The translations under genes were made by a program, and so were the position numbers. A model generated the notes under the pieces. It saw nothing but the letters and a program-made list of their open reading frames with translations. It had not been told where the DNA came from and searched no databases. 64,000 nucleotides of DNA, from positions 729,643 to 793,642 of the forward strand of contig CAJINV010000001.1 of NCBI GenBank assembly GCA_905178155.1, in the 5' to 3' direction. Source of the stretch: Amoebophrya sp. A120. Its lineage: Eukaryota; Protista; Dinoflagellata. Within the stretch, counting starts at the first letter, position 1; each line of letters begins with the position of its first letter. Shown piece after piece: positions 11,128 through 63,600 of this stretch.

Positions 11128-14100
11128 ATGGGCAAGCAGACCGCGCTCTTTCCGCTGGACCCGGAGAAGTATGAGTTCAACCGCGTGCTGGGCTCCGGGT
11201 CGTACGGTGCGGTGCAGTCCTGGAAGCACCTCGGGTACGGCATGTCCTTTGCGGCGAAGCGCATCTCGAATGCCTTCGACGAGTTTCTGATCTGCCGCCG
11301 CACGCTGCGTATGCATTGCAAAAATGTCTGGGCCTGGAAACCTGTGATGCTAATTTGCGGATGACAAGCCACTACCCATAGATATGGGAACACGCATGAC
11401 AAGTTTCCGAGCAACTAGGTGTTGCCTGAACTGCATCAGAAACTGCGTTTTTGCATTACAAAAAAGCAGCGCGGTAGCGCAACATGCATGACAGATCTTC
11501 GTCTCCTGTCAGCAGAGCATTACAAGTCTTGCAATCTCCCAGACCCAGACATATTTGCAGTGGATACTGGGCGAGATCCGGTTGATGCGGCACTTCAAGC
11601 ACGAGAACATCATCGGGATCTGCGACGTGTTATCAACTGCAAATATGTCTAGGTCTGGAAGAGTGCAGACATTTGTGATGCAGTGTTTGCGCGACCCAGA
11701 TCGTCTGGCATGCAAGCCCTAGCATCACAGGTCTGGAGCAGGAGTCCCGATGCCTAATCCGCATGACAAGTTCCCGTTTTCTGTTTCAAGAAGTGGGGCC
11801 CTTTGCTGGCCATGCATGACAGATTTTGGCATGGTGTAGACTTCGCATCACAAATTAACTCGAAGCCTTCCAGACCCAGGCAATATTTGCAATGCATACA
11901 TGTTTACCCAAGAGGCCGAGCGGCCGGACCCGGAGAAGACCGAGCGCAACCGCAAACTGGGCTACAGCGCCCCGAAGCTGGACCTCTACCTCTTCTCCCA
12001 GTTGATGGACCACGACCTGGACATGTGGATCCGCGCCAGCTACAAGAAGCAGCACACCGTGGCCCAGGACGCCAAGAAGATCCGGTCCTACACGCACCAG
12101 ATGCTGCTGGGGCTCAAGTTTCTGCACAAGGGGCACGTGATCCACCGCGATCTGAAGCCCGCGAACGTGTTTATCAGTGACAAGGGGGTGCTCAAGATCG
12201 GCGACCTCGGCCTGGCGCGCAGCATCGACCTGGACGCGAAGGGTGATCCGCTGTACCCGGACGCGGAGGCCTTGACCGAGTACGTGGTGACCCGGTGGTA
12301 CCGCGCTCCGGAGATCATGCTGCTGCGCGGCTGCTACGGCCCCGTCTGCGACGTGTGGGCGGTCGGGTGCATCCTGGCGGAGATGTTCTCGCGCAAGGTG
12401 CTGCTCCCGGGCAGCGGGGGGTACGACCAGATGCTGCGCATCATGCGCGTCACGGGCGTCTACCCGTCTACCTCCTGGTTGAACAACACCACCGGTATAA
12501 AATTTGTTGTACAAGAACTTTAACTACCAAGTGCTCGCAAAAAGAACATTGAAGATTCTACTTAGACAAGGACACTGAAGTAGATTCTATTTTTTTATGC
12601 AAGGCGCCGCATCTGTTTCTATTGTCCACATTTTTCCATTGATCCTTTTTTCGTCACCTTCTAATAGAAACGCCGGACCCGTACGCGCGGCGTAGTCGCA
12701 TCGACAAGCACAGCGGAGACGAGGGCGAAAAGATCGTGAACCGTATCTCCGTATCCAGTGCAATAATATGTCATCTGGGTCTAACTAGAGAGGTGCAGAG
12801 CCAGAAGCTTGTCTTGCAGGTTTGGCGCAGGCCTGATGAAGATGCCTGTCCCGCTTGAGAAATCGATGCGCTATATTCTGATTTTTGTGTAATAGGAGTT
12901 TATTGCAGCGTCACAAGTTTGCATCCTCCCAGACCCAGATCGGTATTATTTGCAGTCCATACTCCGGCGAGGTCCTGCAGCGGTACCCCCACATTTTGAA
13001 CCACCGCGACGCCGGGTCCGTCGACAAGGCCTTCAAGCAGATGCCGTGGCAGTACCCGGGGGACCGTCCCTCGTACAACTACGAGGTGATTGACCTGCCG
13101 CGGGACGTGATGGACCGCATGGGCGAGCTGTCCGGGAACGAGAGCACCATGGCCAAGGACCTGTGCATGAAGATGCTCCAGTACTCCCCCGACATCCGCA
13201 TGACGGTGGATGAGGCGCTGGCGCACCCCTACCTGACCACGGACCCGGTAATTGTGCAGAAGAATGGCAAGGCCGAGATGGAGGTGGAGAACGTGAAAAA
13301 GATCGACATGTCCTACGACCAGCAGTACGACAACCGCGGTATGAGCTCCAAGGACGTGCCCGCGGAGAACCGGAAGAAGTTGGCCAAGCAGCTGCTGGAA
13401 GAGGTAGAGGATTTCCGGCGCTGGCAGAAGCAGCAGTTTATGCCGCAAAAAGAAGCAGACAGGGCATATTTGTGATGCAAAAGTAAACTCACAGGAAAAT
13501 CTGTCATGGGCGACCACATGTATAGCTCGTTGCTTAAGACACGCGAAGAGAAATCTACTTTTTGTGTTGTATATCTTTTTGCACCACTGCCTGTCTTTTT
13601 GTTTTTCTGTGGGATACAATTCAAATTGAAGGTCGAGGAGAAGAAAAAAAAGCAGGAACAACTGCAGGCGGCCCAGCTGCAGCAGCAGCAGATGGCGAGC
13701 GCGGAATACGATCAATCGAACAGCACGGCGGACAGGTGGCAAGTTTGTTTTCGTTTTGCGCTGCATGCAATAACTGACTATGTATGATTCAAAACATCAA
13801 AATCAATATCAAATTCATCAACATCTCTCTGCAGGCAGCGCGTGTCCCGCACCATCTTGGCCACGCAGCAGGGCGCGGAACGGCGATCCTTGGTGGAGCA
13901 AGTGAGCAAGGGACTGATCTCGAACTCGACCAAGAAACACATCTCCCCCGCGGATCAGTCGACGGCGACCAACTCGGCAAACACTTCGGCCGCGACTTCG
14001 ATGGCGCACTCGCGCAGCAACTCCATTTCCATGGTCCCGGCGGACGCGGTGATGCAGCAGCAGGCCTTGCAGTACAGCAGTGCGGCGAACTTCGGTCGCG

Positions 14101-15081
14101 CCTGGGCGGAGCACGGCGGGAGCGGGGCCGGAGGGAACCACCCGCACCCCTACCAACTGCCGAACAACCACGGGGGACCGAGTTCCTCCCGCCCGCAGTC
14201 TGCGTCAAACGTCGACGCGAGCGGAATGACCACGACCTACAACGGGCGGCCGGCGCTGCAGAGCACGAGCCGCGCGCCCGTGGTCCTGCAGCAGAACAAC
14301 TACCATAATGGCTACCAGCAGGATATCATATGTAAAAACGTCCCCACCCCATAGTCAAGTTGGGAACTTAGCAACACAAATCCAGAAGTTTTGGGAGCCA
14401 CGCATGACAACTTGCAGTCCGTAGCGTAGTGCATGTTAGCAAGGACCATCGCATCACAAATCCATCTGCTTATCCTGTTTACAGCATCACAAATTCGAAA
14501 ACGCGATTGGTAATGCCTTGCATGGACATGCGCATTACAAATCTTCCTGTCATCGCAAATCTGCAAGACAACTATGGGGTGGGGACGTTTTTACATAGGA
14601 TACAGGAAAACGCAAACTACCAGCAGGCTTGGGACCCGCACGCATCCTCCGCGTCCGGGCAGCACCAGATGGTGGATCATCAGCAGGATTTGTTTTCCAA
14701 GTTTCATATCCCGCGTAAAGAAGACGTCCTGTTCAGCTAGCGCAGCCGGAGCCGCATGACAAATTTAAAAGTTTGTTCCGATTCTAGCACGACAAGCTCC
14801 CAGATTAGAGCCTCACAAGATGCCTGTCACATATGGCTGCGCATGAGAAACATTTTTTTTGGGCATCATGCAGATTCGCATGGCAAGAAGTCTGAGGTAC
14901 TAGGGACGTTCTTTTACACAGGATATTCCATGCTGCGGCGAACAGCAACTTGCGCTCCCGGGAAAACTACTACGTGGAAAAGATGAACCGACCCTACTCT
15001 TCGCAGCAGAGCTACGGGGAGCAAGATGCGAAAGCCGCGAACCGCGCTTACCGTTATGATCATCAGGGAAACCGGGCGTAA
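11128..15081 (+). CDS. Mitogen-activated protein kinase (TEY activation loop), 9 exons
   Basis: Spliced motifs GSGSYG, RTLREIRLMRHFKHENII, HRDLKPAN, DLGLAR, TEYVVTRWYRAPE, RMTVDEALAHPYL. Six introners plus GT-AG introns 12495-12667 and 13736-13834; stop TAA 15079-15081. Confidence 0.92.
11310..11566. mobile_element. Introner, family A (TIR TATnnAnTGCAAAWATGTCTGGGTCTGGAA)
   Basis: TSD ctgcg/ctggg; removal restores RTL-R-EIRL of the kinase. Confidence 0.92.
11631..11898. mobile_element. Introner, family A
   Basis: TSD cgtgt/catgt; removal restores GICDV-FTQE. Confidence 0.9.
12752..12961. mobile_element. Introner, family A variant
   Basis: Perfect TSD ctccg; removal restores NRIS-G-EVLQ. Confidence 0.9.
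13439..13616. mobile_element. Introner, family E (TIR TATCCCnnAGAAAAA...CAGG)
   Basis: TSD cagtt/caatt; removal restores QKQQ-F-KLK. Confidence 0.85.
14324..14602. mobile_element. Introner, family D (TIR TATCnTATGTAAAAACGTCCCCACCCCATAG)
   Basis: Near-perfect ~31-bp TIR, perfect TSD cagga; frame restored. Confidence 0.92.
14707..14925. mobile_element. Introner, family D variant
   Basis: TIR tatcccgcgtaaagaagacgtcc / gggacgttcttttacacaggata; TSD tttca/ttcca; frame restored to stop at 15081. Confidence 0.85.
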
Positions 15082-17278: not shown

Positions 17279-20200
17279 ATCGACAGGCGCGGCGACAAGC
17301 GCAACGATGCGCCGCCGTCTCCGTCTCAACGTGGAGCGCCGCCGCGCGCGACCCTGTCCGACACCGCGGAAACGACCTCAGCGTGGCTGGTGGTCACCGG
17401 GCAGGCGCAGACACAGCCAGCAGTGCAAAATGATCTTCCCGGGAGCAACGTGAACGTCGCGCTCTCAGTACAGCAGCAGCTGGCCGAACTTGGCGCAGCA
17501 ACGGCAAGGCTGCAGACGACCGTGGCGGCGCTCGCAACGGAGAACAAAGCGCTGGCGAAGGAAAACACAGAGCTTCGTGCCAACGTCCGAGAAGAAGTAG
17601 CTGCCATGCGTGTTCAGATGGAGCACGGGTTCGAGGGCGTGCGCGACTTGCTGGCGTGGCTGGAAGTAATAGTCGGGAGCCAGCTGAGCTACCTACTGGC
17701 CGCCATGCGACTCAAATACACCTACACCGCCGTTTTTCTCTGTTGCGGCTACCTCGCAATTCTCGTCGGAATCGTGCTCCCCACCCGCCTTGTTTTCTTT
17801 CCGCTAGAGGAAGTAGAGGACCACGACACTGAGGCGGGCATCGACGGCCCGGATTTTCATCCGCCCGGGCTAGAAGTAGCGGACGAGACGTTATTTCCAG
17901 GAAGGGACGCCGGAGTTCAAGCAGACAACAGCGACGGGGCCGCGGGCGCGGCGCGGGTACAACGTGGCAAGAAAAACGGGCCGGGTGTTGAGCTGGGTCG
18001 TGACGAGCAGAAGGTGGAGGCGAAGTTGCTGCTTCCCTGGAATTTTGCATACCACGGGACCCTCTCTTCCGTCACACAGCGGCAGACGAGCGGAGAAGGC
18101 AAAATTTTCGCCGCCTGCCTGATTATCAACGAAGTCTGCGTGCTCTTGTCCGGCTACACAATGGTGGTCTACGACAAGTCGTGCCCGCGCTCTCGCGATG
18201 CCGCCGAGTACCTCTTTGTGCCGGCAATCGAGGCGGATAGCGTTGGCAACCTTGCGCTTCGCGTCACGTGGTTGATCCTTCCGCGGTATCATGTCGAAAA
18301 GGGCCCCTGCCCCAGAACTATAACTTGGAAGTATTTGCATTGCAAAGCCCCCGAATGTTGGGGACACTCCTCATCTTGCATGTATCACCATCACAACTTT
18401 CGTTTTATTTATTCCCAGGCTGTTTATCAAAAATTTCAATTTGCACTGCAAAAAAGCCCAAAAAACGAATTCATAAGCTTTTCCTGCAAGACAGAGCAAA
18501 GTGCTCCTTTCATATTACTGCAAGAAGATCATGACAAGCTGACGTGACGAACTTCGGAAATAAGGTCTCCATCTAGGTTTTCGTTGTGTTTCAGGTCGCG
18601 GTCGGAGTAGTCGAAGACAAAGGGTCTAGTACTCCATTTGAAAACTCTGATGCATGAGAACAAACGCTTCCTGCAACTTCCGAAGGTGGGGCGCTTCTCA
18701 TTGTAATCAGCGAGTTTTACTGTTGTTGGCCGCGGCGGTCCCGTCTCCGACTTTTGAGGACGAGCTGGATGTTGATCCAGGGCATGATGCTGAAGATGAG
18801 GATACGACGACAATTACCCCGAGCCCGAACATGATGAAGTCGACCTCTGACAGCATCATAGAAGAGCGAAAGCGAATCGCGCAGCTGCACGAGAGCCTGA
18901 CACGCAAATACATGTACAACATCCATCAGGCAGTGTACTGCACAAGAAAAAGGAGCTACTAGCAGCTTTCTCCATCTGCCAATGCAAAACTGAGCAGGCA
19001 CGAGCAGTCCTGGATGATCAAATGGCAAAAGATAAACCATGAGCGAGCCGCCCATGGCTACGCGTTGTTTCGGATTCATTTTTACATGCGCAAGATTATA
19101 TTTATAGGGACGCGAGAGTTCTTCTGGGTTTAGTTTTGCACTACCCTAAGCAACATATGATGAATATGATAAGCTGCTGGCTTTTTGTTTTTTTCCTTGG
19201 GATACGCGCGGCCTAGCGATAGCCTTGCTCTTGCTCTTCGAAACGTGGCAGCTCGTATGGCGCGAAGAGGTGAGCATTCCGCAGGTTTTAGTCGGTTACT
19301 CACCGAAACGCATAGCTCACTCGTATGATCACGACGATTGCGCTATGCAGCAAGCCCACAAAGTGTGGAAACTGCGATGGTTGTATTTTCCCCGTGTTCT
19401 TTCACTGGTTCTCGGATGGGTGTTCTCCGCGGTTTTGGTCATTTTGGCGGTCGTGTTGTACTACCGGCAGTACGACCATTCTACCAGCAGTTCCATTTGG
19501 GCGCCCAAAGCGGACCGCGGAACGGCCGGTGGACGCTTGATGCCGAAATCCACCAGCCTATTGCTGCCACGGTGCGTCTACGTTGCGCAGGTGATGGTCA
19601 TGCTGACGGTCTTACGCATTGCAAATATCGATTTGGGTCTGGAATACAACACTTGTGACGCTGAAATTGTCATGCTTCGATGTTGGCTTTCCTAGTGCAG
19701 CCAAAAAAAAAAAAATATTGTGGCATTGTTTTCATGCACGTTAATAAGCCCACCTTGACAAAAAAAGGTTGCGCTTTTGTTGGTCATGCAACTACACAGG
19801 TTTTACAGGAAAAATGCCAGACAAGCAATGCAACCTCCACCTTTATTCCAGACCCAGACATATCATTTGTACTGGATAGCTGTTCGGCCTACCGTTCTGG
19901 CCCATGCTGTTCCAGGTTTTGGAAAAGAAGAAGGACAGAATGCTTTCAGAGACGAGCAGCATAGGCCTCGGGCAGGACCTATCCCGGAGAAAAAAGGAGC
20001 TAGCAGGGCACATTTGTAATGCATTACAAATATGACCTGCACCTGCCTGCTTTTTGTTTTTTCTGTGTGATAGGACGCGCTCGACTCGATCGCGGCCAGA
20101 GTGGAGGGCCTTTTCAGTATGGCCTGGAGATTCGGAACGCCAAGCTGCGGCACCTATGCGGACTACCTCCAGGAATTTTACAACAGCACTGCCCCGACCT

Positions 20201-20292
20201 GCGATCCTGACAAGATGTGGTGGGAAATGGACCGGGGAGAAGCTCACGATGCCAACTGGCAACAGGAATTCTGGAGGCGGTGGGGACTCTGA
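17279..20292 (+). CDS. Multi-pass membrane hypothetical protein with N-terminal coiled coil (5' exons probably from ~16719, unresolved)
   Basis: ORFs 17390, 18654, 19225 and 20101 join into one frame after removing four introners. Several hydrophobic helices; stop TGA 20290-20292. Confidence 0.7.
18287..18708. mobile_element. Introner, family C, degenerate
   Basis: Ends tatcatgtcgaaaagggcccctgcccc / ggtggggcgcttctcattgtaatc; TSD cgcgg/agcga; frame restored LPR-VLLL. Confidence 0.7.
18936..19204. mobile_element. Introner, family E, degenerate
   Basis: Ends tactgcacaagaaaaaggagctactagcagc / gctgctggctttttgttttttccttgggata; TSD decayed; element+5 nt restores frame. Confidence 0.7.
19613..19878. 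mobile_element. Introner, family A variant (can be read as GT-AG intron 19609-19879)
   Basis: TSD ggtct/gctgt; frame restored. Confidence 0.8.
19980..20072. mobile_element. Introner, family E, 93 bp (smallest)
   Basis: TSD ggacc/ggacg; TIR tatcccggagaaaaaagg / ttttgttttttctgtgtgata; frame restored. Confidence 0.82.
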
Positions 20293-22350: not shown

Positions 22351-22352
22351 AT

Positions 22353-24462
22353 CTATCCATCCCATTTGAATGTTTGTCTATCCTGTACAAATTTCCCGGA
22401 TTTGGGCAAGTATTCTGTGTTTTCCATTGCAAATATGTCGAGGCCTCGAAAATGCAAATGCTTATGTTCGTCGCTTCAAAAGGAGCGAATCAATTTCAAC
22501 ATGAAACACCTGCGCATGCCTAGCAGAGCGTATCGAGTTATTTGAGAACTCCCGCTTCTCCATGACAGCAGACCGTGTCGCGCATTGATGTCATGTATCG
22601 CGCCAGCTTTTGGTAGTTGTGCTCGTGCTTTCAACGAACATCAACAAGCAAAATCAAAGCGAAACTTCGTTCTAGAAGGCCCAGACAGATTTGCAACGCA
22701 TACACATTTTCCAGCGCCAACCAGGTTGGGGTATCCGCGCCCTCTTCGGCTGATCGTGGAGCTCGGTCGCCGGCCATGTCTATCCTGTGCAAAAATATCG
22801 CACTCGTATTTTTGCAATCATGCATTACAAAAAATCCTTTTGCTAAAGTAACTCCGCATTAGAAATTTTATTTCTTAATGCATTTATACGAGTACGATAC
22901 TTTTGCAGTTCATAATGTCCGTCCGACACCAACCGGGGCAACACGGGTACACCAATACATTTTGATCCGGTATTATGCGAGGAAAATAGACTTAGATACT
23001 AGCGCAGACAAAGGATTGATATTTGTCTAGGACAGGTTATTATTGGCGACGCCAAAGCAAAATTTACTTATCATGCAGACGGTGGCCCGGGCGCGGGCCC
23101 GAGGATCTATCGATCATGACGGCGCGACTTGCCGTGTAGAAGTGCTGGTCGGTCGTTGTAAACAGCCCAACATGTTGCCGGATGTGATAGCATTTTTGTG
23201 CTAGATTAGTAGATTTGTCTTGATGGCAGCAGCAGACGCAGAAGCCACGGCTTCGAAATTTGCAATAGCAGCTGCTGCAGAGGATGTTCTTGATCATGCT
23301 TTATATATTTTGCGACATGTTTTTCTGCACCCGCACCCGTGTACTAGTTTATTTCCTCTTGCATAGCCAAATCCCGGGCCAGGAGTCGCGTGAAAGCGAT
23401 TTCTGCCGCTTTAGAAACCGCGTAGGTCTGCCGCGGCCAGCCGAACTGCGCGTAGGTGTCCTCCCGCACCTTGGCGATAAATTCGGTCGTCAGCGCCAAA
23501 ATATCCTCCTTGGATTGGCAGGCGAGCCACCTCTGTTTCAGCTGGGCACTGTACCGGTTTTTCAGCAGTCCCGCCATGCTGCACACGTTCACGATCCGCC
23601 GGGGTGGGTCTTGGTGCGGGCGATAGGTGGCGCCGTCCAAGAGCAGGGGAAGAAAGGCCTCCGTGACCAGCATAGTGCCCTCGAAGTTCGTGCCGATGGT
23701 CCGAGCTGCGACTTCCACGCTGAATGCGTCCCCTTTGAACGCCATACCCGCATTGTTCACCAGCACGTGTAGCGGTGGACCAATTTTCTGCGCCGCGCTG
23801 GTCATAGTTGCGGGGGCGGTTAGGTCGAGCTGGACGAACTTCAGCGAAACGCAGGACGAAGCAGGGCCTCCATTTTTACCTGTGAGAGTAGAAAACCAGA
23901 CCGTTTGAAAATGGTAAACGTCGTTCTAACTATCGCGGATAGATCCCCCTGCTGCGTGCGGTCAGATGAAACTTCTACAATATAATTTCTATATACCCGC
24001 TCCAGAGCTCGCTTGAAGCTCTGCTTCCACGTCTCGTCGCGCCTTTTCTCCGAGCTCGACGTTGCGGCAACCCAGAAAAATTTCCGCGGGCTGCTATTAC
24101 AATGAATAGTGCCCCCACCCCAGAACTTGGCAGCATCTGTATTGCAAACTTTTCCAATAGATACACTCCCCGCTTTGCATATATCAGCATCACAAATTTT
24201 CCATGCTGAATAGCTCAAATCTGTGTTGCAAAGGAGCCCGAAAGTAGCCGGATCTGTCATGCAAAAGATACCTTGCGGAGCTAGAAAAAGCTTTCATTTG
24301 GAAACTTTGCATGAGAAACTTTTGCCACTTCCGGGGTGGGGGCATTTTTCATTGTGATAGCTGTCGCGTGCGGGTGAGATGATGTGCCATGAGCCGCACG
24401 ATGTGAAAACCGATGCCTTTGTTGGCACCAGTCACAAGAATGCGCTGCGGCGCAGCCGACAT
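22353..24462 (-). CDS. Short-chain dehydrogenase/reductase, carbonyl reductase-like, 6 exons
   Basis: Motifs LVTGANKGIG, LVNNAG, YAVSK (YxxxK), CCPGWCRTDMAG, SAEEGADTPTWLAL, SGKFVQDR. Four introners plus GT-AG intron 23880-23996. Confidence 0.9.
22421..22702. mobile_element. Introner, family A, strongly decayed
   Basis: Ends tttccattgcaaatatgtc / ccagacagatttgcaacgcata; TSD decayed; element+5 nt restores ALENV-EYLPKSGKF. Confidence 0.72.
22781..22914. mobile_element. Introner, family G (TIR TATnnnnTGCAAAAnTATCGnACTCGTAT)
   Basis: Perfect TSD atgtc; removal restores CRTD-M-AGD. Confidence 0.9.
22971..23365. mobile_element. Introner, family F-like, degenerate
   Basis: Ends tattatgcgaggaaaatagac / gtttatttcctcttgcata; element+5 nt restores LARDL-A-QNVLVYPCCPG. 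Confidence 0.7.
24095..24359. mobile_element. Introner, family C (TIR TATCACAATGAAAAATGCCCCCACCCC)
   Basis: TSD gctgc/gctgt; removal restores TRQ-P-AEIFLGCR. Confidence 0.9.
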
Positions 24463-25479: not shown

Positions 25480-26991
25480 TTATGGAGGGAAAGTGAATGA
25501 CTTCACGACGAAACCTTTCTTTCGAGAGTGCTGGTGTGGGCCGTAGAGAAATTATCCCGGTCACAGCCACGCTGATGAACAATTTGTATGCGAGCGATGT
25601 GGCCTCATACAATGCTAAAGCATCCTGACAAAAGGAAGGCGCATGCCCAGATGCGCATGACAAATTAGATCTTCACTTAGAGCCTGCTACTAAAGTCGTA
25701 CATCACGACCCTGAGGGGAGATAAAAATCACTCCTTTCCCTGCCATAGTCCTGCATCAGGTAGAATTCGGTGGTGTTTTTGGCGATGAGCGCCCGCAGTG
25801 CGTTGACGCCGAAGCAGAACTGCAGCACTAAAAACAGGCCAAGATCCACGTACAGCAGGGCCTTCTCCAGGGGTAGCATGCACCGCGGGTGGCACTTGGA
25901 GTTCGGCCCGACTTCGGGGAGAAGGTCGGGGCTGAGGAGGAGAAAAATCTCCAGAATCATGCCCGGAAAGACGGTGAGAATCAGGAAAAGAAACAGGTGC
26001 GGGACGTTCTCCGAGAGGTTGCCGCGGTACCCCAGGTAGTAGCGAAACGGCTCCAGAAAGAAGACGAAGGCGGTATGCAGGAAAAAAACTGTGTTAGTGT
26101 AGAGTAGGTGTCTATGTCTTGGCTTGACGGCATGACAAATCTGTCTGGCATGACAGCAAAAACTTGCCATGCGCAGGCAGTACGTGAAAACATGTATGAA
26201 ACTAGCCTATGACGCATGTCTAGCATGAGAAGTGCATACTGTGCAGAACTTTCCGTAGTTGTAGGGACTTACAGCAATACACACTTTTTTTGTTCTTGCA
26301 TAGGCAACAGTCAGAATGTACAGGGTGATGGCCAGCGGCACGTCGCTTATCCACCGCGCCTTGTACCACCCGGCAAGAATAAGGCAGACCGCGAAAAGCA
26401 CCTTGTACCAAAATCCGAAGAACAACAGCAACTGCAGGTGCAACGACGTCGAAATCTCGCGGTGGTAGATGTCATCCTGGGTCTATCAAGCGTCAGAAAT
26501 AGCGTCGTTCCCACGAGAACCCCAGAGACAAGAGGGAAAAAATGAGGACACTGCTAGTACAACACAAGTGAGGAGCTTACTTTTCTTGGCTGTTGCCCAT
26601 GACAAAGTTGGCGGTGCAATAGCAGATGTGAAATAACAGTAGTCGTGCTTAGGCAGCGGCGCGGTCGCAAACAAATAGGATTAGGCCAATTCATCTGTAT
26701 CCTGATTGCGATTGGAGCATGCCAAAATTCCGAAATAAAGTTATAGGAAAACAACTGCGCAGCTTCAGACAGCTGCAGGGTCATCTGCGGATGCAAACTT
26801 GCACGAGGGGAACATCAAATCTCTGCTGGGGAGGACGCTTTTTTTACCGAGGATAGCGTTGACCTCTTCTGCTTCGTGTTCGGCTGCGCTGCAGTAGTCT
26901 CGCCTGGCTTTTTCACCACCGTCTTCGGAGCCGAGGAGGTCGCGGCATTGGCTGAAGGACCCGCATTATTCTCTGTGCCGGAGACCGACAT
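25480..26991 (-). CDS. TMEM17/TMEM216-family ciliary transition-zone membrane protein, 4 exons
   Basis: Motifs STSLHLQLLLFF and EPFRYYLGYRGNLSENVPHLFLFLILTVFP; four hydrophobic segments; three introners. Confidence 0.75.
25553..25723. mobile_element. Introner, singleton family I
   Basis: TAT...ATA with weak TIR, TSD gaaat/aaaat, internal gcatgacaaa; removal extends the frame to TAA at 25480. Confidence 0.6.
26074..26302. mobile_element. Introner, family F (TIR TATGCAAGAAAAAAA.TG)
   Basis: TSD ggcgg/ggcaa; removal restores LTVA-FVFFLEP. Confidence 0.85.
26484..26855. mobile_element. Introner, family D variant
   Basis: Ends tatcaagcgtcagaaatagcgtc / ggacgctttttttaccgaggata; TSD gggtc/gcgtt; frame restored ST-Q-DDIY. 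Confidence 0.75.
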
Positions 26992-30253: not shown

Positions 30254-32340
30254 CTACCCCGTCCCACCACCTGCTTGCTCAGCCTCCACCCCGTCCGGCG
30301 GTCCTGCTATTTCTGCGGCACCCCCGGCTTGTGTACTAGTCATGGGTTCCTCCTCGGTATAGACCGGGCCCCAGCTGGGGTCGGTTTTCGGACCACGGTA
30401 GCTGTCGCCGTCCACGGAGGAGAGGTCGGAGACCTCCTGGATCTCGCTCCCCTTCGGCGGGTATACATTGCAAATATGTCATCTGGGTCTGGAAAAGTGG
30501 AGCTTGTGTTGCATGTCTAGCACTCCTGAAAATAAATGTGTATTGCATAGCCAGCAAAGGCGTTGCTTGTTGTCATGCAGAGACGCGTAGTTTGCGTTTG
30601 GCTTTGTCATGCGTGCTAGTACGCATCAGACGGCGTCAAATGAATCGGTCATGCTTGGCTGCAGTTGAAAGCACCAAACTCATCAACACTTTAGCATCAC
30701 AGGTTTCCTTCCAATCCCAGAAAACATATTTGCATGGCATAGCGGGTGCACGAGCGTTCGCGGGTTGGACTCGGCGGACCGCGTGAAGCCCGGACTGTTC
30801 TTGGCCTCGGTGTCTGCCGTGTCGACGTAGTCCTCCGGGTCCAGCGCATCGCGACCGGTCACGTAATTCAACGGCTCCCACCGCCGCTCCAGGAACGAGT
30901 ACTTTTTGCGGTCCTGCTGGAAAGTCAGCCGCCCGATGCCGACCAGGTTCAGTGCCATATCAACTGCAAAAGTGTCTGGGTCTGGAAGAATGCCAGACTT
31001 GTCATGCAGGTTCTCCATGACCCGTGAGGTTTGGTATGTAGAACATAGCATGACAGATTCCGTGAGAGTTCTATCATGCCTATCCTGCATGAGAAACTGC
31101 CTCTCGATTAGGTCAACAGCGGACAGCTTTTGGTAAGGATGCAACACAGATTTTTACATGATTGAGATTTAGCATGACAAGTTGCTTTGTTCCAGACCCA
31201 GACATATTTGCATTGGATACGCCAGGGTGTGACGTGACCGCAGAATTTCGCACAGACGGTCCTATGGAAGCGTCAGGTTTGAAATCGTCAAAGTTTAAAT
31301 AGTTTGTAATGCATAAAATGCATGACCCGCGGCACGTGTGTTGCAGAGCAGGCAAGTGAGGCCGATTGTAAGCCTGTTTGGGGTTACAGCTCGAGCTGCT
31401 AAAGTAGCATGAGAACATCGCTCTTCTTTGCCTAAACAGCATGACAGAGTGGATTTAGGGGCCGCCGAAACTTGTCATGCACCACTTGGAAACTGGGTTC
31501 CAACTGGAATCCATTTTATGCATGACAAATTATTTCAACTTTGTCGATTTCAACTCTGACACATCCATAGGTCCACGGTCTCGTTCACGAGAGAGAGGAC
31601 CAAATCCTGTACAGTTATTGTTTCTGTCGCCTAAAAGGTTTTCGTTTTTGTTTTTCGACCACGAGTCGGTTTATTAAGGGTCGTGGTCCGGCATGAACCA
31701 ACCTGCCATGGAATTCAATGTCGTGATGACTCATATTATCCTATCACCCAATATTAAAAATGATACCACATCCTCGCCCTTTGCGAATCCCCTGGCAAAC
31801 GGCGGGTTTTTTTCTTCCTTGACGAAGCTTTTTGCCTTCACGATTTTCTTATCAAGTGCAAAAATGTCTGGGTCTGGAAGATTGCCAGGTTTGTCATGCA
31901 TATCCTGCATGACCCATGATGCCTGTAGTGCATGACTTGGCATCACAGACTTTTGGAAGGCTCCCCGATGCCTATTCCGCATGACAAATGCCCTCTCCGC
32001 GTAGCACAATCTGGGCTCCTGTTGCTGGTCATGCAATACAGATTTTCTTAGAATCCCAAGACAGCATGACAAGTTTGGATCCTTCCAGACCCAGACATAT
32101 TTGCAATGCATATTTCTCCGGCACGCATCTCTTCTCCAGTCCGGATCGCTCGAGCACGTGCTGCGCGAGTTGAAACACCACCGGTCCACTCAGCGTCTCC
32201 CGCCCGAGCAGGCCCAGGGAGGCAAATTTCAGGCAGAAGGGTTTTTTGCGCTCCATCGTCCGCGCCACCGCGTGGCAGTACATCTCCCAGGCGTCCTGAC
32301 GCTGCTGCGTCTCGAACAGCGCAACGATGTCGAGGAGCAT
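30254..32340 (-). CDS. Hypothetical protein, 6 exons (5' end uncertain)
   Basis: One continuous frame after removing four introners and GT-AG intron 31607-31766; stop TAG at 30254-30256. Confidence 0.72.
30462..30741. mobile_element. Introner, family A variant
   Basis: Perfect TSD gcggg; frame restored. Confidence 0.88.
30958..31219. mobile_element. Introner, family A
   Basis: TSD tgcca/cgcca; frame restored. Confidence 0.9.
31263..31569. mobile_element. Introner, family H (~60-bp TIR TATGGA.G.GTCAG..TTGAAATCG.CAAAGTT.AAATA.TTTGT.ATGCATAAAATG)
   Basis: Perfect TSD ggtcc; frame restored ETVD-R-LCE. Confidence 0.9.
31850..32112. mobile_element. Introner, family A
   Basis: Perfect TSD tttct; full-length similarity to 61612-61873 and, inverted, to 43149-43412. 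Confidence 0.93.
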
Positions 32341-42783: not shown

Positions 42784-45457
42784 TCACGCTTTCGCGTAGT
42801 ACCTCCAAAATGACCGCCAAGATGAGCTGCCACCCTTTTTCCTGGCTAAAGTGTCTCCGTCCTCTCTCTCACCAGAAGATGCGCTGTTTCTCGTCTCTTG
42901 AGCTCCTGACCGCGCAAAGCGATCCCCCGGAGGAAGTCCCTCGTCAAAATCTTCCTGATACCGGCCGTCCGGACCATAGTCGTATGGTGGGTAGGACCGG
43001 TAATTATTTATATTTTCGAAACTGTCGTCCCCACCATGAGCAGCTGCAGGTCCTTCGTGAAAATTGTCAGCAGAACCACTACTGGGCACTCTTCTCCTAA
43101 TCGGCAATTTCCAGCCCCCGAGCAAGCGGATGAAGGTGGCGCACTCGCTATCAAATGCAAAAATGTCTGGGTCTGCAAGAATGCAACTTGTGATGCTGCA
43201 TCTCGATGTCTAAAAAATTTCTGTGTTGCATGAGTAGCAAAAGGATTCTAATTTTTGCTACGCGGAGAGGGCATTTGTCATGCGGAATAGGCATCGCGAA
43301 TCCCTCAAAAGCCCTGTGATGCCAGGGCATGCATCACAGACATCATGGCTCATGCAAACCGTGCATGACAAGTCTCAGAATCTTCCAGACCCAGACATTT
43401 TTGCATTTGATACTCGCTGCTTCCGCGGTACAGTGCTTCGATGTCCTTGTAGAGGTGGAAGGCGTTTCGTTTGTTCTTGCCGAGAATCGCCACTTCTGTC
43501 GCGACATTGCCGTATTCCTGCCCGAAGTGGGCCAGTTTGTCAAAGTCTCGCTTGCTTTCCGCTTTCGCGAAGATCTTCTGGAGGTTCAGTTTGTGCAGCG
43601 CCGGCGCGCGTTCCTCTAACACGGGTCGGGGCGGCGGAAGCCGGGTCAGCTCGTAGTTGCTCAGGATTGTCTCCTTGTTCTCAAACAGCAAGGTGCGGAG
43701 ACGTAAGGGAACTTCGTCCTTCTTGCCCGTGCTCTTTTTCGCGAGAGGTATAGATTTCGATTTCGAATCAATATCGTTTAATGCTCCGCGTTTTGTTCCC
43801 GACGAGGAAGATGTTTTTGCAGTACTGCTAGCTATTTTCGGTGGTTTTATCGCCTGCCTGTCCAAAATCTCCGCGAGAGTCTCGTAAGGCTTTACGTTTT
43901 GGAAGAGTTGCCGGAATTTGTGCGGCCCGAAGCCCTTCGCGCCGGCGGTAATGCAGTCCGAGCTGTTATCCAAGGAAAAAAGTGCTACAGTTACACATTT
44001 GTAGTGAATTCAGCATCACAAATTTGCCTTTTAATGCAGAGATTATAAAGCAAAAGCAAAACACACACGAAACGAGACCCGCAAGCATTTTGCGCATGAC
44101 AGAAGTCGTCTGTCATGCATGTTTTGCAACACAATGTGTAACTGTAACACTTTTTTCTTGCGATAGCTGTCGCCCGAAATCGCCAGCATTTCCGCGATGC
44201 GGTCTGCCGGGAGACCGAGGTATAAGAGTGCACAACTCCCCCTCGTCCCCCATTTGTAGGGCATGAACAACAATACAAGCGCCGGCACGAGTGCAGGTTT
44301 TGCATGACAAATTCACTCCGGATTGTAGTGCTGTTTGGGCTGCCAGAACCTGTCATGCAAAAAGTGAGGCAAAGGGTGCATTTTTTTGGTCTATTTTGCA
44401 TGACAAATGAGGGGAAGCAGGGGCGGTTGTGCACAACTATCATACGAACTTGTGCTCCACCAGAATCTCGTCGATGGGGTCGAACGTGAAGGGATCCACG
44501 ATATCAATCCCGTAGGGCAGGTATGCATGGCAAATATGTCTGGGTCTGGAAACTGAGACATGGAACTTGTAATGCTTGCTAGTCCTACACTCCTGTAAAA
44601 TCTGTTTTGCCTGACTAACAAAGAAGACGTTCTCTGTGGTCATAAAAAAGCGCAGTTTCTCATGCGGACTGAGCATGAGAGAGCGTTCAGCGAACTTGTC
44701 ATGCTGGGCTGCATTGGCAAATATTTCAGTCATCCACAGTTCAGCATCACAAGTTTCCAGACCCAGACATATTTGCATGTGATAGCAGGAGTTGAAAGAG
44801 GTCTTTGTCGGTGGAAAACACGACGGTTTGGTTCTTCGTTGGAACAAGGAGCTGTTGTTGTACTTCTGCATTGATTTTGCCGCTAGAAGTAGAATTGGCC
44901 GCGTCTAGTGAAGAGGTAGACCCGGCGGATGAGGCTGTTGAGGAAGAAGATGTTGAACACGGAGGTGCACCAAGTTGTTGTTGATCACCGGTTCCTTCAC
45001 TTATCTCTACGTGTTCCACTCCTACTCCCTGGTTCCGGCACTGCCACTCGTGCTCCACGGCCAACTTGGCCAAAACGTCGTCGCCCTCCAACCCGTTTTC
45101 TGCCACCACGAGCGGAATCCCGCTGTAGGGGAGAAAATTCCTCCGCACCAAGTTCAGGTTCGCGACGAAAATTTCCCGCTCGCGCTCGTCCTTCCAGGAG
45201 ACCCGCTTTTTGTACTCCTTCAGATGCTCCTTGCGCCAGCTGTTGGACTCCCCGGAAAGCGAATCCAGCACCAGCAGCGGCTTCGCCCGCACCGTGTCCG
45301 CGATCAGCCGGATCGCCCACAGCTTCCTGCACAAATTCTCGGTGAAGTGCTGACCTTTACCGGCCGCGCAGAACCGGCGGGCAACCAGGGTACCGTCGAT
45401 CAGCCACAAGGGGCCGGTGGCCGTCGCGGCCAGGGCCGCCGCGCTGGGAGGTGACAT
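42784..45457 (-). CDS. Stand-alone 5'-3' exonuclease / flap endonuclease (PolI 5'-nuclease-like PIN + H3TH), 5 exons
   Basis: Motifs LIDG, LVLDS, WRKEHLKEYK, LEGDDVLAKLA, STDKDLFQL, LAISGDSSDCITAGAKGFGPHK; four introners. Confidence 0.85.
43149..43412. mobile_element. Introner, family A
   Basis: Perfect TSD ctcgc; frame restored. Confidence 0.92.
43967..44165. mobile_element. Introner, family F
   Basis: ~33-bp TIR (...aaaaaagtg.tacagttacacatt), perfect TSD gctgt; restores the H3TH motif GDS-SD. Confidence 0.93.
44221..44444. mobile_element. Introner, family B
   Basis: TSD cgagg/cgaac; restores EHKF-G-LPAD. Confidence 0.88.
44522..44784. mobile_element. Introner, family A
   Basis: Perfect TSD gcagg; restores FQLL-P-YGID. 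Confidence 0.92.
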
Positions 45458-46508: not shown

Positions 46509-47858
46509 TCATGCCCGCTGCACCACAGATCCGTTGGCGGTGCGCACGTAGTAGCTGTCTCCCGCCCCGACCCCCGGTTGCTGGGACATGGTCAACGACG
46601 CATTTTGAGAACCTCCTGATCTGCTTCTTTGCGAGGCGGAGGAAGAGCGCTTCGATTTCGTGCTTGTAAGCATTTTCTCCTCGTCGTCCAGCTCCTCCTC
46701 CTTGAAATCGTACATGGGCCATTCGCAACAGAAAATCCGTTTCAACACCAGCGGGAAGCATTTCCCTCCAGGAAAGGGGACCAGCATAAAGGAACTCTGT
46801 CTGTACTCCTTATAGTCGTCCACCAAGTTTGGGTTCGTGTAGTACCGCTTCAAATTCTTCCCCTCGCAGGTCGGCAAACCGGACACGCACATGAGCAAGA
46901 CGCAGGTGAGGCAGGGTGATAACCCCGCGATGATCATGTAGACTAAAAACCACTTCTGGAACATCCCGCCCGGGAAGGACTGCTCGAAGCCGCGCACCAG
47001 CGGCCACGTGAACGCCCACGCGGAGAACCACATGAGGATTTCGCCGAAGTAGTTCGGGTGGCGGCTCCACGCCCAGGGCCCGATCTTGCAGATCCCGCCA
47101 GGGCGTCCGTTCGCGACCCATTTCGCCTTGATGATGTCAGAGCTTATTTGTAAAAGTAAGCCGATAGAAAACGTCGCCGCGAACACGTAGTCGTACCACC
47201 GGAATTCCGTGCGGAACTGCGCCCCAAGGACGACCAGCAACGTATGCAAGTACATAACTCCCCATCCCCCTCATTTGAATGGCATTCACAGCAACACAAA
47301 CAACGGCAGAAATGTGGCTTCCGTATGACAAATCTCTAATATACGGATTGATGTAGTACTGTTTGAGGTTGTTCCAAAATCTGTCATGCAGAGAGAGCTT
47401 AAAGGCAAGACGTGTATTCGGTATGATGCATGACAAATGAGGGGGAGCAGGAGTTGTGCACTCCCATACAGCGGCATGGAGATCGCGAACACCCAGAAGG
47501 CCTGCATCATCCAGGTGATCAGGAATTTACAGAAGGACTTTTTGATCTCCTCGAACCGGCTGTCCCCGTCGCGCAGGCGGACGCGGTAGCAAAGGAACAG
47601 CAGCAGCCACATGCGGCTCAATGCGAAAAGCGTGGTCATCGTGATCTTCCGGGGGTCATCATTGTTCGCCTGCGATTGGAAGTACGCGAGCGGAATCATG
47701 GCGAGGAAATTCAAGCCGCCGATCGTGTCAAACAGCGCCTCCGTTTGGAGCACGTACCCGTGAATGAACCCGAGCAGCTGCGTGCCGCCGCACAAAGCCG
47801 CGCCCGTCCATAGTAATTGGTTCACGCACAGCACCGAGGGGTTGGCGAGTTGGGCCAT
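46509..47858 (-). CDS. DUF1295 / steroid 5-alpha-reductase-like membrane protein, 2 exons
   Basis: Motifs RDGDSRFEEIK, WMMQAFWVFAISMP, GPWAWSRHPNYFGEILMW; one introner. Confidence 0.88.
47243..47468. mobile_element. Introner, family B
   Basis: TSD caacg/cagcg; restores SMPL-LVVLG. Confidence 0.88.
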
Positions 47859-49573: not shown

Positions 49574-49829
49574 TTATTTTATATTTTACCCCTGACGCTG
49601 ACAGGTTTTGGTTTGATTTATTGTACATCAGCATGCGCTCTTCTACTACCTAGGAACAGCACATCTCGAAAGCGTGACCTAGCCGCAGACACAGTTCATC
49701 TGCGAGCTCTCTCGCACCAACTTTATCCGGCCCTCCACCCGAAAGGAACACAAAGACGAGAATCAATGTCGGTGCCAACACCAGCCAAAGCGATGCCCCA
49801 CTTACAATACAAGCAACAACGCCAGTGAG

Positions 49830-56289: not shown

Positions 56290-57938
56290 TTATGTCGCTA
56301 TTACAGTAGACAGCATTTCCCGCAGGAGCATGATTTTATGCTGCACGATGGCATGACAAGTATCAATTTCCCCAGGTAGAAGCTTAGTCGGTTCATTTGT
56401 TTTGTTTTCTGGCTTATCCACTACTTCTGCACTACCTACTCGCCCTGCAACCCCAAGAAAGAGCAGACAGTTGTGAATTTTCTCTATCGCACTTTCATAT
56501 ACCACGGAAAACTCGCGCACGTGCTCCGCGATCAACCGCAACACGTCGCCCAGCAGCTCCAAGTAGCCGGCGCCAAGAATTTCCTCTCCGGCCCCCGTTC
56601 TTTCGATATCGGCCTTCGTTCTGCTCGTGTTCCCACCTCCTCCTCTTGCCTTTGCGACGAAATGCGGAAATTCTTCCGTTTCGAACGTTCTCAGGGCCTT
56701 CAGAGCTTTCCGCACAATCCACTGTCTGACCTCGCTCACGCCGCTGCGGCCGCTGGACTGCTGCATCAGCTTCTGCCGGAGTTCCTTCTGGGTAGCGCTC
56801 GTGTAGGGCACCGCCTGCAGGTCTTTCTGCTCTCTCCTGGATTTTGCATGTTTCTCGGGATTGGTTCTAGCCTCTTCGTCCGTTCGTCGCTGCAGCGCCG
56901 CCAGTCGACTGGCGAGGTTTGCAAGCCGGCGTTGTTTTGGAAGGACTGAAGTGGTATCTTGGTCGAGTTGTTCTTGTCCGCTTGGGTTCTTGTGGAGATG
57001 AACGTCTTTCGAGCTAGACTTCGAAGTAGACGGCTTCCTTTTATTTTCCACGACCGCGGGGTTATTTTTCGGTGCAGAACTACCTCCAGACGTCTCGTTC
57101 GCTGCTCTCATTTCCAGCTTTTGCTTCTTCAACTGTGGCTCTGAAGCTGCTGCGGCGCTCATGTTTGAAAGTAGAGCTGCTCCCCGATGAGTAAGATCTT
57201 GTTGTGCGACCGGCTGCATATAATGCGCCTTACCTGCTCGGGCGGTCGCCGAATTGTTCTTTTGTGAATTATTGGATGCAGCAGCAGCAGCAGCAGCGAG
57301 CTCTACTGCAGCTTGTTGCTCTCGTTTCAGCTTATCCAGTTCCTTCGCGATGGTCTCGAGTTCCCGTCCGCTATCAAAGAAAAAAACCGGATTAGTGTGG
57401 GCAGCTGTCGTCGGGTTACAGCATGACAAATTTGCTCTGCATGACAAAGAAATCCTGTCATGCAAAGCCACCTAGTACGTGAAAACACACACGAAATAGG
57501 ACTTCACGCCTTGCTAGCATGACAATTGTAAGTGTGTTCCATGCTTGTTTGCATTACAGACTTACACTCACACAGTTTTTTTCTTGCATATCCGCCTCGC
57601 CGGCTCCAGTACTGCGCATTCCCGGGGGCGTCGTCCGGTGGCTGGTCGCAGTGGCACCCGCGCAGGTCCGCACAATACACCTCATCGATAGTTTGCACCG
57701 CGTCGTAGCTCCGCGCGGTTAGCAAGCGCCACTTGTCACACTTGTCGCAGCACACCCAGTAATCGTGGACGACAACTTGATCAGGGCTTTGCTGTGCGGT
57801 CTGCTCGTCCACTGCTAAGGGTATGTGAGCAGCCAGCGGGGGCGGTGGTGGGGAACCCTGGACGGCGACCGACGGCGGACTAGAGAGCAGTAGATGTGGC
57901 GTCGCGCCGCCCGGCGCGTGGTGGGGGTTAAGGGCCAT
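56290..57938 (-). CDS. CW-type zinc-finger protein (3' end may extend to ~55.6-55.8 kb)
   Basis: zf-CW signature WVCCDKCDKWRLL...YCADLRGCHCDQP; one introner joins ORFs 57504-57986 and 56290-57471. Confidence 0.75.
57372..57590. mobile_element. Introner, family F
   Basis: Perfect TSD tccgc; restores RRGG-RELE. Confidence 0.9.
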
Positions 57939-60691: not shown

Positions 60692-63600
60692 TTATAGTAC
60701 CGGTTGTCCCCCCTGCCCTGGCGGCGGTTGGTGGTGCTGACCCTGCGGAGGTGCGTGTCCCGCTGGCGCACTTCCTGCTGCCGGCGGTGGCGCTTGCCCA
60801 GCCGGTGGCGGCTGTGTGTGATACTGGTATGATTCCCCAAAGCCCGCTCCGTAATTTGGTTCCTGCGCGACCGGAGGTGGTTGTTGCGCGTGCTGCTGCG
60901 GCGGCGGCGCCTGTGCGTAATGCTGCGGCTGCTGGTGCTGGTGGTGCTGCGGGGCGTGCTGCGGCGGTGGCGCATGTTGGTGTGCTCCCGCGGGCGGCGG
61001 CGCATGTTGATGGTGTTGTTGTGCGGGTGGAGCACCGGCATGTTGCGGTGGAGCACCGGCATGCTGCGGTGGCGGAGCGGCGTGGTACTGGTACTGCACC
61101 GGCGGCGGCTGGCCGCCGGGTGGCGGCGCCGCGGGGGCCGCGTAGTGGTACTGCGGTGGGGGGGCATTGGGATCGTGGGCATACTGCGGTGGGGGCGCCG
61201 CATACTGGGGTGGCGCTGGCGGGGGCGCGGCCGCATACTGCGCGTTCGGGTCGGCATAGTACACCACCTGGGGCTGGGCGTACTGCGGCTGCGCTGCGTA
61301 CTGCGGTTGTTGTGCGTAATACCCAGCATGCGGGTCCACATAGGCCGGCGGGGCCTGTTTTTTTTTTTGCGACGGTCACAGTACTGATAGCTACTGCTAC
61401 ATTAACATTGTTCGTCAACATTCACATCAACAGCCCAGTTGTAGTTCAAAAAGTAGACCACACGCCTGCTTCTACGCAGGAACACAGCTACTTTTTACCA
61501 AAACACCAGTCAGGGAACCATATTATAGTATAAAAAAATTATGTGCTTACGCTATAGTTCACGCCCGGTGGTGGTGCCGCCACTACCGGCATCGGCGCGA
61601 CCGGCGGTGCTTATCAAATGTAAAAATGTCTGGGTCTGGAAGATTGCCAGGTTTGTCATGCACATTTTGCATGACTCCTGATGTCTGTGATGCATGCCCT
61701 AGCATCACAAATTTTGTGAGGGCTTCCTGATGCCTATACCGCATGACAAATGCTCTTTCCGTGTAGCAAAACTTGGACTCTCTTTGCTGCTCATGCAATA
61801 CAGATTTTTTTAGAATCCAAAATCAGGATGACAAGTTGGATTCTTCTAGACCCAGACATTTTTACATTTGATAATGCCAATCCTCGCTCAATGGCGTGTC
61901 TTCCCAGTGCGCGCATGACCATCTCCTGCCTTTTTGCCTCGTCCATCGGTGCCTTATGACCATGAAAAATGCACCCACCCCAAAAGTTGTGATGCGAGGT
62001 TTCCAAATGAAAACCTTTTGTCATGCATCAAAGGAATATGAATCTTTGTGATGCAGAGTCTGGGCGTATATAGCATTGCTTGCATGACAAGCGTCGCTCT
62101 TGCTGGGATCTTTTGCAATACAAATTTCTGCTATTCACGATCGGAAATCTGTGACGCTGATAGATGCAAGAGGGCGAATGTTTCATTTGGAAAGGTTTGC
62201 AATACAAATGCTCCCAAATTCGGGGGTGGGGGCATTTTTCATTGTGATATGCCTTATGACTGGTTTCCGCGGTTTTTAGCAGTAGGTTGGACCCGCGGAG
62301 ATAGACCGTGTTGTCTTTCTGTTATAACATGTTCGGATGGTGGGTCGGATGGTTTGATTCAGAAAAAATGCACAGATAGATGAGGGAAGTTTCAGTTTTG
62401 AGGTTTCTTCGTGAAAAAAAAATAACCGAGGATCACAAATGGAAATGTAGTAAGTACCCATGACACCACTTTGCAGTAAGAAAATCAGCAACATATTGGC
62501 ATGGCAGCGTGGTCTTCAATTACTAGAACTAGTTGTTGATCATGATCATTCCATTACCTCCAAGAATATTCTGATTGCTGCTTCTCTTGACGCATAGTGG
62601 ATGAATGCGAAGCCTCGACTTTTCTGCTTTCCCCCCTTTCCATCGCCCTTCAGCTGGTGTCCCGCCCGCTCCACTAAGAGTACCATCCCTGAGTTGGTTT
62701 CGTTTTTCTTTTTGTGTCCCAAAATTGAAATGGAAATAAGTCATGTGCGACATAATTGTCAGGCTGTGTCTGTGTGCATAGCATCGTTTATAATATCCTC
62801 CAGCAAAACTCATTCCAATCTTCATGTTTAAAAAGTACTTACCCCATTGCGAGAAGAATTTTCCCAATTCGTCCTCCGTGTGCCATTCCTGCACGTAGCC
62901 AACGAAAATTTTCGCCGGATCGGGCGACCGCAAGAAGGGATAGAGCTCCTCTTCGGTTTTCAGCTTGTCCTTCACGTCTTTCTCACTCTGATACCGGAGC
63001 GTCAGGTATGACAGGGCACAACTCCCCCTCCCACTCATTTGTATTGCATGAACAGCAATACAAACGCCAGCGACCCTGGAGCCTGTGCATGACAAATTTG
63101 TGTGCCTACTGTAGTACTGTTTGGGCTTTCGAAATTTGTCATGCAAACAGTGCCACAGGGCAGCGACTGGATTTGGGATTTTGCATGACAAGAAATGAGA
63201 GGGAGGGGGAGTGGTGCACTGTCATATCAGGTGCTGCGGCGGTTCCAGTCCGGGGAAATTGTGTCCGTCTAAGAAATATGGATTGCAAAAATGTCTGGGT
63301 CTGGAAGAATTCATGTTTGTCATGCTTGTCTGGCATGGCTCTTAAATCTGTCATGCACCTTACCCAAGAACCCCATTTTTCTGTCATGCAGAAACGCTGT
63401 TTGTCATGCAGAATAGGCAACACCTAGGAGCTCAGAAACTTGTCATGCTGAGCCAGCATTTGTAGCCTCATCATGAGACGCCACCCAGCATCACAAGTTT
63501 CCAGACCCAGACATTTTTACAATCCATAAGAAAGCGGCGTCCGCGTCTGCCGCTTGCTTGTAGGTGATGAAAGCGAAGGGAAACTTTCCCTCCTTCCGGC

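Follow-up and report, generated by a model that had tools for sequence, protein, structure and literature searches.

Transposon-like introners in coding exons of Amoebophrya sp. A120 are cut from transcript contigs at a fixed 1 + 4 nucleotide register

Thirty-four TAT...ATA inverted-repeat elements with 5-bp duplications lie inside coding exons of the 64,000-nucleotide (nt) stretch of the Amoebophrya sp. A120 genome analysed here (the window), where they were catalogued between positions 11310 and 63528. Where their junctions can be read in transcript-type contigs, these introners are cut one nucleotide ahead of UAU and four nucleotides beyond AUA, two spacers that together equal the length of the duplication, and we are highly confident that this code is fixed. 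As a whole explanation of the single register, we give roughly even odds (about 0.5) to a cut-and-ligate pathway, distinct from GT-AG splicing, that takes the elements out of the pre-mRNA. The elements, their TAT ends and their odd splicing have already been published, while the 1 + 4 rule is apparently new.

Results and discussion

Skipping of the elements in RNA-type contigs

The RNA-type evidence comes from four contig sets of one study, representing at most two samples and presumed to be RNA. Contig mapping at 90% likeness was dominated by other element copies, and the table of aligned pieces was used instead. In the interval 19500-32400, for which 15 of 16 joints are listed (13 at elements and two at GT-AG introns), these contigs skip all 13 elements, each by its length plus 5 nt, and remove the two GT-AG introns alongside them. 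Bookkeeping of piece lengths adds the removal of 12752, 13439 and the pair 14324 and 14707 (elements are named by their first position; Table 1). These junctions bear out the proposals of an earlier note, made from the sequence alone, that the elements act as non-GT-AG introns losing element plus 5 nt and that a second excision rule exists alongside GT-AG; as repeated, RNA-supported non-canonical introns, they are introners in the A120 sense. An AT-rich intergenic stretch (20950-22300, 31% GC) has no RNA-contig cover.

A hairpin with a direct repeat is a classic template-switch substrate, and the contigs derive from complementary DNA, a setting in which the junctions might represent reverse-transcriptase switches across hairpins between direct repeats, in genes that are not truly spliced. 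We consider this very improbable. Template switching fails at 22421 because the joint there has no shared letters, and three other joints share only one; elements with weak hairpins are also skipped; and the conserved kinase, SDR, exonuclease and DUF1295 frames depend on removal of the elements and match orthologues or a paralogue without gaps.

The cut register

We define k as the number of bases of the upstream duplication copy retained in the exon. Perfect duplications make k uninformative at four of the 13 elements, and the nine others give the intervals entered in Table 1. Piece ends add lower bounds at 11631, 13439 and 14707, assuming the leftmost-joint convention of the joint table, and conservation of RTLREI demands at least 4 at 11310. 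Only k = 4 satisfies every interval, so that the intron reads N-TAT...ATA-NNNN and the exon retains 4 nt of the upstream copy; reading the junctions at elements with mismatched duplications, the check that the earlier note had proposed, thereby fixes the register.

The reading frame places the gene with 19613 and 19980 on the plus strand. Which copy of the duplication is kept thus differs between plus- and minus-strand genes, and the cut tracks the direction of transcription, not the orientation of the element. Because families occur in both orientations, nearly equally (94 versus 96 in the 12 families with at least six members), an asymmetry bound to the element would give k = 1 at half of the junctions; in transcript sense, nine of the RNA-tested elements are incompatible with k = 1, and at none is that value required.

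The same asymmetry decides most of the case for excision from the DNA, programmed or somatic, before transcription, a route the earlier note had allowed for. An anatomy of inverted repeats and duplications is what a transposase acts on, and the table of joints for the DNA-type run was so crowded that rare excised DNA could escape notice. However, since nine elements exclude k = 1 despite a family orientation of about 50:50, the asymmetry follows transcription, and long contigs of the DNA-type run X1, which may be the window's own source, pass unbroken through 11 elements (12752, 13439, 14707, 18287, 18936, 19980, 22421, 22974 and the three at 25481-26855). The summed depth over elements is very high in this run. 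A DNA-level route is not supported by these results and we regard it as most unlikely.

Independent elements were taken from one pattern scan of a metagenome, which gave 141 stretches; 136 loci, some overlapping, were analysed (0.79 Mb). These are probably one further assembly and not many species, because the first 80 loci listed have one contig-name prefix; they share no non-element sequence with the window, and their elements reach 95% identity to those in the window. A search blind to the flanks found 348 distinct elements, 266 with a perfect 5-bp duplication and 52 with one mismatch, as against three with perfect repeats at 4 nt and none at 6 nt, so the centring of the duplication on 5 bp, on which the earlier note had staked its interpretation, holds beyond the window. 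Counts that depend on strand use 247 of these elements, after removal of 19 with more than two mismatches in the target site duplication (TSD) and then of 82 of the remaining 329 in which strand could not be called with confidence; the strand caller was correct in 24 of 25 calls in the window.

At k = 4, the introns of the 34 window elements begin with GT (12), CT (10), TT (6) or AT (6) and end in 14 different dinucleotides, AG among them twice. The 247 independent elements have G at +1 in 75 cases (32% expected) and AG at the intron end in 20, with no enrichment of either, and the GT or GC donor and AG acceptor that mark U2-type introns do not characterize the elements. Sliding the junction offers GT-AG at 19613 alone and GC-AG at 61955 alone, as the earlier note had it, and the GT-AG cut available at 19613 (k = 1) was passed over in three of four runs with a joint.

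The same code may be read by an altered U2-type spliceosome, for which N-U-A-U would be a relaxed GUA donor, an A of the terminal AUA (-7 or -5) or one nearby the branch point, and the acceptor a matter of distance, with the hairpin helping. This is a serious possibility, to which we give somewhat less than an even chance. All 34 elements have U at +2, with A at +3 in the 5' ends, and orientation independence is compatible with such a spliceosome because the 3' terminal inverted repeat (TIR) presents the same sequence in both orientations. According to Farhat et al. (2021; PMC7789003), the commonest non-canonical sites in strain A25 all start with TT and its inverted repeats with TTA, and A120 has a nearly full spliceosome in which U1 small nuclear RNA was not found; the spliceosome of Fritillaria handles transposon-derived non-GT-AG introns (PMC11282704). 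What an altered spliceosome does not readily accommodate is the lack of selection for G at +1 or AG across the 247 elements, the freedom of the last four intron bases, and the ready GT-AG that was passed over at 19613. A branch point 5-7 nt from the intron end would, moreover, be unusually close.

Contrary to expectation, and not counted as support, the copy that is exonic at k = 4 in the 247 strand-called elements has the less-used codon at 34 of 50 mismatches (p = 0.015), the sign flipping between TSD positions 4 and 5 (Fisher p = 0.036). Intron phases at k = 4 stand at 114:61:70, an excess of phase 0, among the 245 of the 247 elements with a frame.

As to what is recognized, 25481 keeps the +5 in spite of a 1-nt indel in one TIR, and therefore the ruler begins at the terminal triplet; 26484 is cut at the same register without predicted pairing, and therefore the terminal triplets probably also act as sequence. 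The triplets are likely read as sequence with the hairpin assisting. The 'structure-defined' excision of the earlier note stands only in part, given the result at 26484. Hairpins are strong (z ≤ -3, 12 shuffles per element) in 25 of 34 elements. The second base pair of the ends is predicted to be paired (P ≥ 0.5) in 26 of 34, and is absent in some spliced elements.

Host genes and reading frames

Coding segments were drawn by hand and make up about 48% of the window once the elements are set aside; all 34 elements lie in them. Removal of element plus 5 nt gives an open frame in all 15 gene segments and at all 31 elements they hold, although in several short or GC-rich segments the test discriminates poorly against +4 or +6. 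The same removal fits 12752 and 13439 by their match to protein P0001, while at 18287 a stop follows 4-10 codons on whichever way the element is cut; the claim that the frame is restored every time accordingly stands with 18287 uninformative. An Amoebophrya sp. A120 protein matches the kinase exon 11903-12493 at 100% identity (the A25 orthologue at 66%), and after removal three sites in the kinase domain align ungapped to orthologues, as do three transporter-like sites (34469, 35050, 36194) to an element-free paralogue. Pfam searches of 65 of the 108 listed open reading frames (ORFs) of the window named kinase, SDR, TMEM17, 5'-3' exonuclease, DUF1295 and zf-CW families.

The genes lie in two long co-oriented blocks, plus from 1 to 20300 and minus from 22350 to 64000, as described for Amoebophrya. 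Tandem paralogous membrane-transporter-like genes at 33830-37100 and 38560-41030, with three introners and none respectively, provide empty-site controls. The region 49700-51900 is GC-rich (68-72%) with overlapping long frames; neither Pfam nor the loci gave a match to it.

Table 1. Elements and control introns of the window, with the evidence on their removal and on k.
Feature	Position	Strand	Evidence
Introner, MAP kinase gene	11310..11566	+	TSD differs at position 4; R of RTLREI (invariant, 3 orthologues) needs k = 4-5
Introner, MAP kinase gene	11631..11898	+	Mismatch position 2; RNA piece begins 11901, k ≥ 2
Introner, MAP kinase gene	12752..12961	+	Perfect TSD; 388 nt removed = 215 + 173-nt GT-AG intron (173 read by hand)
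Introner, MAP kinase gene	13439..13616	+	Mismatch position 3; 282 nt removed = 183 + 99-nt GT-AG intron; k ≥ 3
Introner, MAP kinase gene	14324..14602	+	Perfect TSD; 508 nt removed jointly with 14707 = 284 + 224
Introner, MAP kinase gene	14707..14925	+	Mismatch position 3; RNA piece begins 14929, k ≥ 3
Decayed element, may be GT-AG intron 18286-18594	18287..18591	+	Right end set by hand; without RNA joint
Decayed element (TAC start, 4 TSD mismatches)	18936..19204	+	Left end set by hand; +5 opens 309-codon frame
Introner with unused GT-AG option	19613..19878	+	Joint 19611-19883; k = 4-6; GT-AG would need k = 1
Shortest introner, 93 nt	19980..20072	+	Mismatch position 5; joint 19973-20072; k ≤ 4
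Introner, SDR gene, TSD fully decayed	22421..22702	-	Joint 22416-22704, zero shared letters, 4/4 runs; k = 4 exactly
Introner, SDR gene (CCPGWCRTDM)	22781..22914	-	Perfect TSD; joint = element + 5
Introner, SDR gene	22974..23365	-	3 TSD mismatches; joint 22968-23366; k = 4-5
Introner, SDR gene	24095..24359	-	Mismatch position 1; RNA joint; k = 1-5
Introner, TMEM17-like gene	25481..25747	-	1-nt indel in one TIR; k = 4-5
Introner, TMEM17-like gene	26074..26302	-	k = 2-6
Introner, TMEM17-like gene	26484..26855	-	No predicted end pairing, z = -0.1; k = 4-5
Introner	30462..30741	-	Perfect TSD; joint = element + 5
Introner	30958..31219	-	Mismatch position 5; joint 30953-31221; k ≤ 4
Introner	31263..31569	-	Perfect TSD; joint = element + 5
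Introner	31850..32112	-	Perfect TSD; joint = element + 5
Longest introner, 507 nt, membrane-transporter-like gene	34469..34975	-	Inner insertion; ungapped to element-free paralogue
Introner, membrane-transporter-like gene	35050..35301	-	Perfect TSD; ungapped to paralogue
Introner, membrane-transporter-like gene	36194..36420	-	Mismatch position 1; ungapped to paralogue
Introner, 5'-3' exonuclease gene	43149..43412	-	Pfam and frame
Introner, 5'-3' exonuclease gene (GDSSD)	43967..44165	-	Frame
Introner, 5'-3' exonuclease gene	44221..44444	-	3-nt indel in one TIR; frame
Introner, 5'-3' exonuclease gene	44522..44784	-	Frame
Introner, DUF1295 gene	47243..47468	-	Mismatch position 3; Pfam and frame
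Introner, zf-CW gene	57372..57590	-	Pfam and frame
Introner	61612..61873	-	Mismatches positions 1 and 5; frame
Introner, GC-AG possible at k = 2	61955..62249	-	Perfect TSD, register not resolvable; frame
Introner	63007..63226	-	Perfect TSD; frame
Introner	63277..63528	-	95% identical to copy in locus L013; frame
Canonical GT-AG intron (control)	23880..23996	-	Removed in same contigs as introners
Canonical GT-AG intron (control)	31607..31766	-	Removed in same contigs as introners

Anatomy of the elements

An assumption-free inverted-repeat scan, an end-motif scan and inspection gave 33 elements, and an RNA joint the 34th (22974-23365); the ends of 18287 and 18936 were placed by hand. The count and extent given in the earlier note are confirmed, as are the location of all 34 within coding sequence and the presence of five single-base deviants from TAT/ATA (18287, 18936, 19613, 22421 and 36194). 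Its tally of duplications is right for the 15 perfect ones, the rest having one (9), two (5), three (3) or four (2) mismatches where it had counted 10, 6 and 3, and in place of its roughly nine families clustering of the element ends gives 11-13 end classes.

The elements are 93-507 nt long (median 262), with a GC content of 44% versus 58% in the flanks. Identity of the repeats abutting the ends is 0.80 at 5 nt versus 0.21-0.33 at the other lengths from 1 to 10, none of which rises above background (33 elements, two starts later corrected). Without regard to the TSD, a scan found 27 TAT..ATA pairs whose inverted identity reached 19/30 or more, and in 19 of these the duplication had no more than one mismatch; in 20 local shuffles the number of pairs was 0-6, none with a duplication. 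The consensus over 66 ends is T (64), A (63), T (62), with A at positions 11-13 in 55, 62 and 54. The internal motif GCAT(G/C/T)ACA(A/G) has 90 of its 94 window matches within elements and occurs in 28 of 34 across the end classes. With TIRs, a fixed TSD and short, non-coding, multicopy bodies, the elements have the features of miniature inverted-repeat or other non-autonomous TIR transposons. Rfam gave no match anywhere in the window.

The decayed element at 18286-18594 now has the ends GT...pyrimidine tract-CAG (element + 4), a possible conversion of an introner to a canonical intron; one contig of run X5 covers most of the other decayed element, 18936, uninterrupted. The 507-nt element holds an insertion of about 195 nt (34500-34694), at whose borders about 12 nt of the inner TIR end are repeated; 55 nt of the insertion match locus L035, which also has an over-long element. 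Two identical intergenic stretches of about 46 nt (41309-41355 and 42049-42095), in direct orientation, flank some 700 nt of low-complexity sequence, and a short TAT...ATA inverted pair lies directly before the second; the repeat has no match in the fetched loci.

Mobilization

The shared ends, TSD and internal motif across 11-13 end classes suggest that one transposase, or close relatives, mobilizes the elements. To that extent the single enzyme proposed in the earlier note gains support, although none was found: no transposase family was named by Pfam in the 65 of 108 window ORFs scanned, consistent with the statement in that note, nor was an autonomous copy with matching ends found in the window or in the 0.79 Mb of loci. 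As possible autonomous elements, 15 listed long TAT..ATA pairs whose TSD is perfect were considered; four of the longer ones, on checking, proved to combine separate elements by chance, and no Pfam family was assigned to any of 10 inner ORFs selected. Three long introners of 631-873 nt (L018:632-1465, L036:3862-4492 and L071:13016-13888) have a perfect TSD and unrelated inner cargo, whose longest frames have no Pfam family.

The earlier note knew of no matching TIR superfamily and had overlooked IS3EU/GingerRoot (PMC10045372; PMC6839031), which likewise has TA..TA termini and GC-rich targets without base preference, the insertion targets at our loci having a mild GC lean. Membership fails on the TSD, because that of IS3EU/GingerRoot is usually 6 bp versus 5 bp here, and GingerRoot TIRs are 100-150 bp. 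It is the nearest superfamily and the best lead, together with family 38 among the A120 TIR introners, for which Gozashti et al. (2025) describe integrase-like homology. In a published dataset (PMC12130899; 21 of 58 A120 rows), TSDs are called at lengths of 2 to 5 and the class is mostly 'TIR DNA, unknown'.

Comparison with known introns

Farhat et al. (2021) described about 30,000 repeated non-canonical introns in A120, leaving open their mode of splicing, with no clear splice signature and borders variable or unknown. Their introners (about 240 nt) have inverted repeats that start with TAT, then seven variable nt and at least three A, direct repeats of 3-5 nt including a 5-bp example, hairpins, and no cognate transposase. 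Our elements carry the same organism label, TAT start, seven variable nt, A-run and repeats within 3-5 nt, and differ in a TSD of strictly 5 bp and in a single register that serves all tested junctions. Their Table S4 has T at +2 in all nine top A120 sites, which is compatible with the rule and confounded by aligner choices. The novelty assumed in the earlier note is hence limited to the register, as the TAT start and a 5-bp direct repeat were already on record; no fixed register for Amoebophrya introners was found in the literature searched, in which subscription journals are poorly covered, and figures 3, 4 and S19-S25 of PMC7789003 may show part of it.

The nonconventional introns of Euglena (PMC12501133; PMC6221363) share with these elements a terminal triplet (paired in Euglena, and predicted to pair in most elements here), fixed free spacers, slidable direct repeats, a MITE-like origin and coexistence with GT-AG introns. 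Their triplets are CAG/CTG with spacers of 3 and 5-6 nt and a purine opening the next exon, whereas ours are TAT/ATA, the spacers measure 1 and 4 nt, and no rule governs the exon base. Reading of the triplets as sequence, aided by the hairpin, is a logic that was shown genetically in Euglena, and its excised introns are reported to be circular (PMC11282704). The lineages are unrelated, and homology is not claimed. The non-canonical introns of Fritillaria, like the spliceosomal introners of Micromonas, Aureococcus, Symbiodinium and Polarella (PMC9860276), are also TIR/TSD elements turned introns that leave the mRNA unchanged, but they carry or recruit GY/AG (or AG-AC/AT) from the element or TSD, and no dinucleotide is recruited here.

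A proposed cut-and-ligate model

In the pathway we favour, a DDE transposase encoded elsewhere would insert TAT...ATA elements in either orientation, with a 5-bp duplication and a lean towards GC-rich DNA. The TIRs are predicted to pair in the transcript, bringing UAU next to AUA, and the cuts fall at the junction positions observed, with the result, also observed, that the mRNA regains its pre-insertion sequence for any target or orientation. The enzymes may be an endonuclease and an RNA ligase that recognize the paired triplet together with its spacers, in line with proposals for euglenid nonconventional introns. Because the 1 + 4 spacers restore the sequence, elements would be tolerated in any exon. 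We hold more tentatively, as a possibility only, the fuller proposal that a second, non-spliceosomal mRNA splicing system evolved independently in Amoebophrya, convergent with that of Euglena, which would read the terminal triplets and measure the 1 + 4 nt of the 5-bp duplication, scarlessly erasing, in either orientation, insertions of an undescribed IS3EU/GingerRoot-like transposon with a 5-bp TSD.

Several observations weigh against a separate cut-and-ligate pathway. The transcript evidence consists of assembled contigs whose RNA status is a guess, the raw RNA run X9 gave 73 partial mapped reads and no usable coverage, and k is fixed unaided at one junction only (22421). Some low-depth contigs retain elements (X4 records 7 and 8, X6 record 18, and X5 record 12 at 19980), resembling what unspliced RNA or DNA would give. 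Folding is weak (z > -3) in nine of 34 elements, four of them with RNA joints (22974, 25481, 26074, 26484), and 26484 is spliced even without predicted end pairing. The register places U and A at +2 and +3, matching the canonical GUA that a spliceosome would prefer, and the spliceosome is nearly complete in A120 (PMC7789003); no nuclease, ligase or transposase was identified.

A fixed cut position that ignores the normal splice signals nevertheless points to a likely second splicing route. The single rule N-TAT...ATA-NNNN makes a testable code of the open question of A120 splicing: it predicts every junction, permits re-annotation of the genome, and supplies a well-specified substrate to lariat-versus-circle and minigene tests. 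Because the spacer lengths sum to the TSD, a transposon can saturate exons cheaply, and Amoebophrya offers a second lineage for comparison with Euglena.

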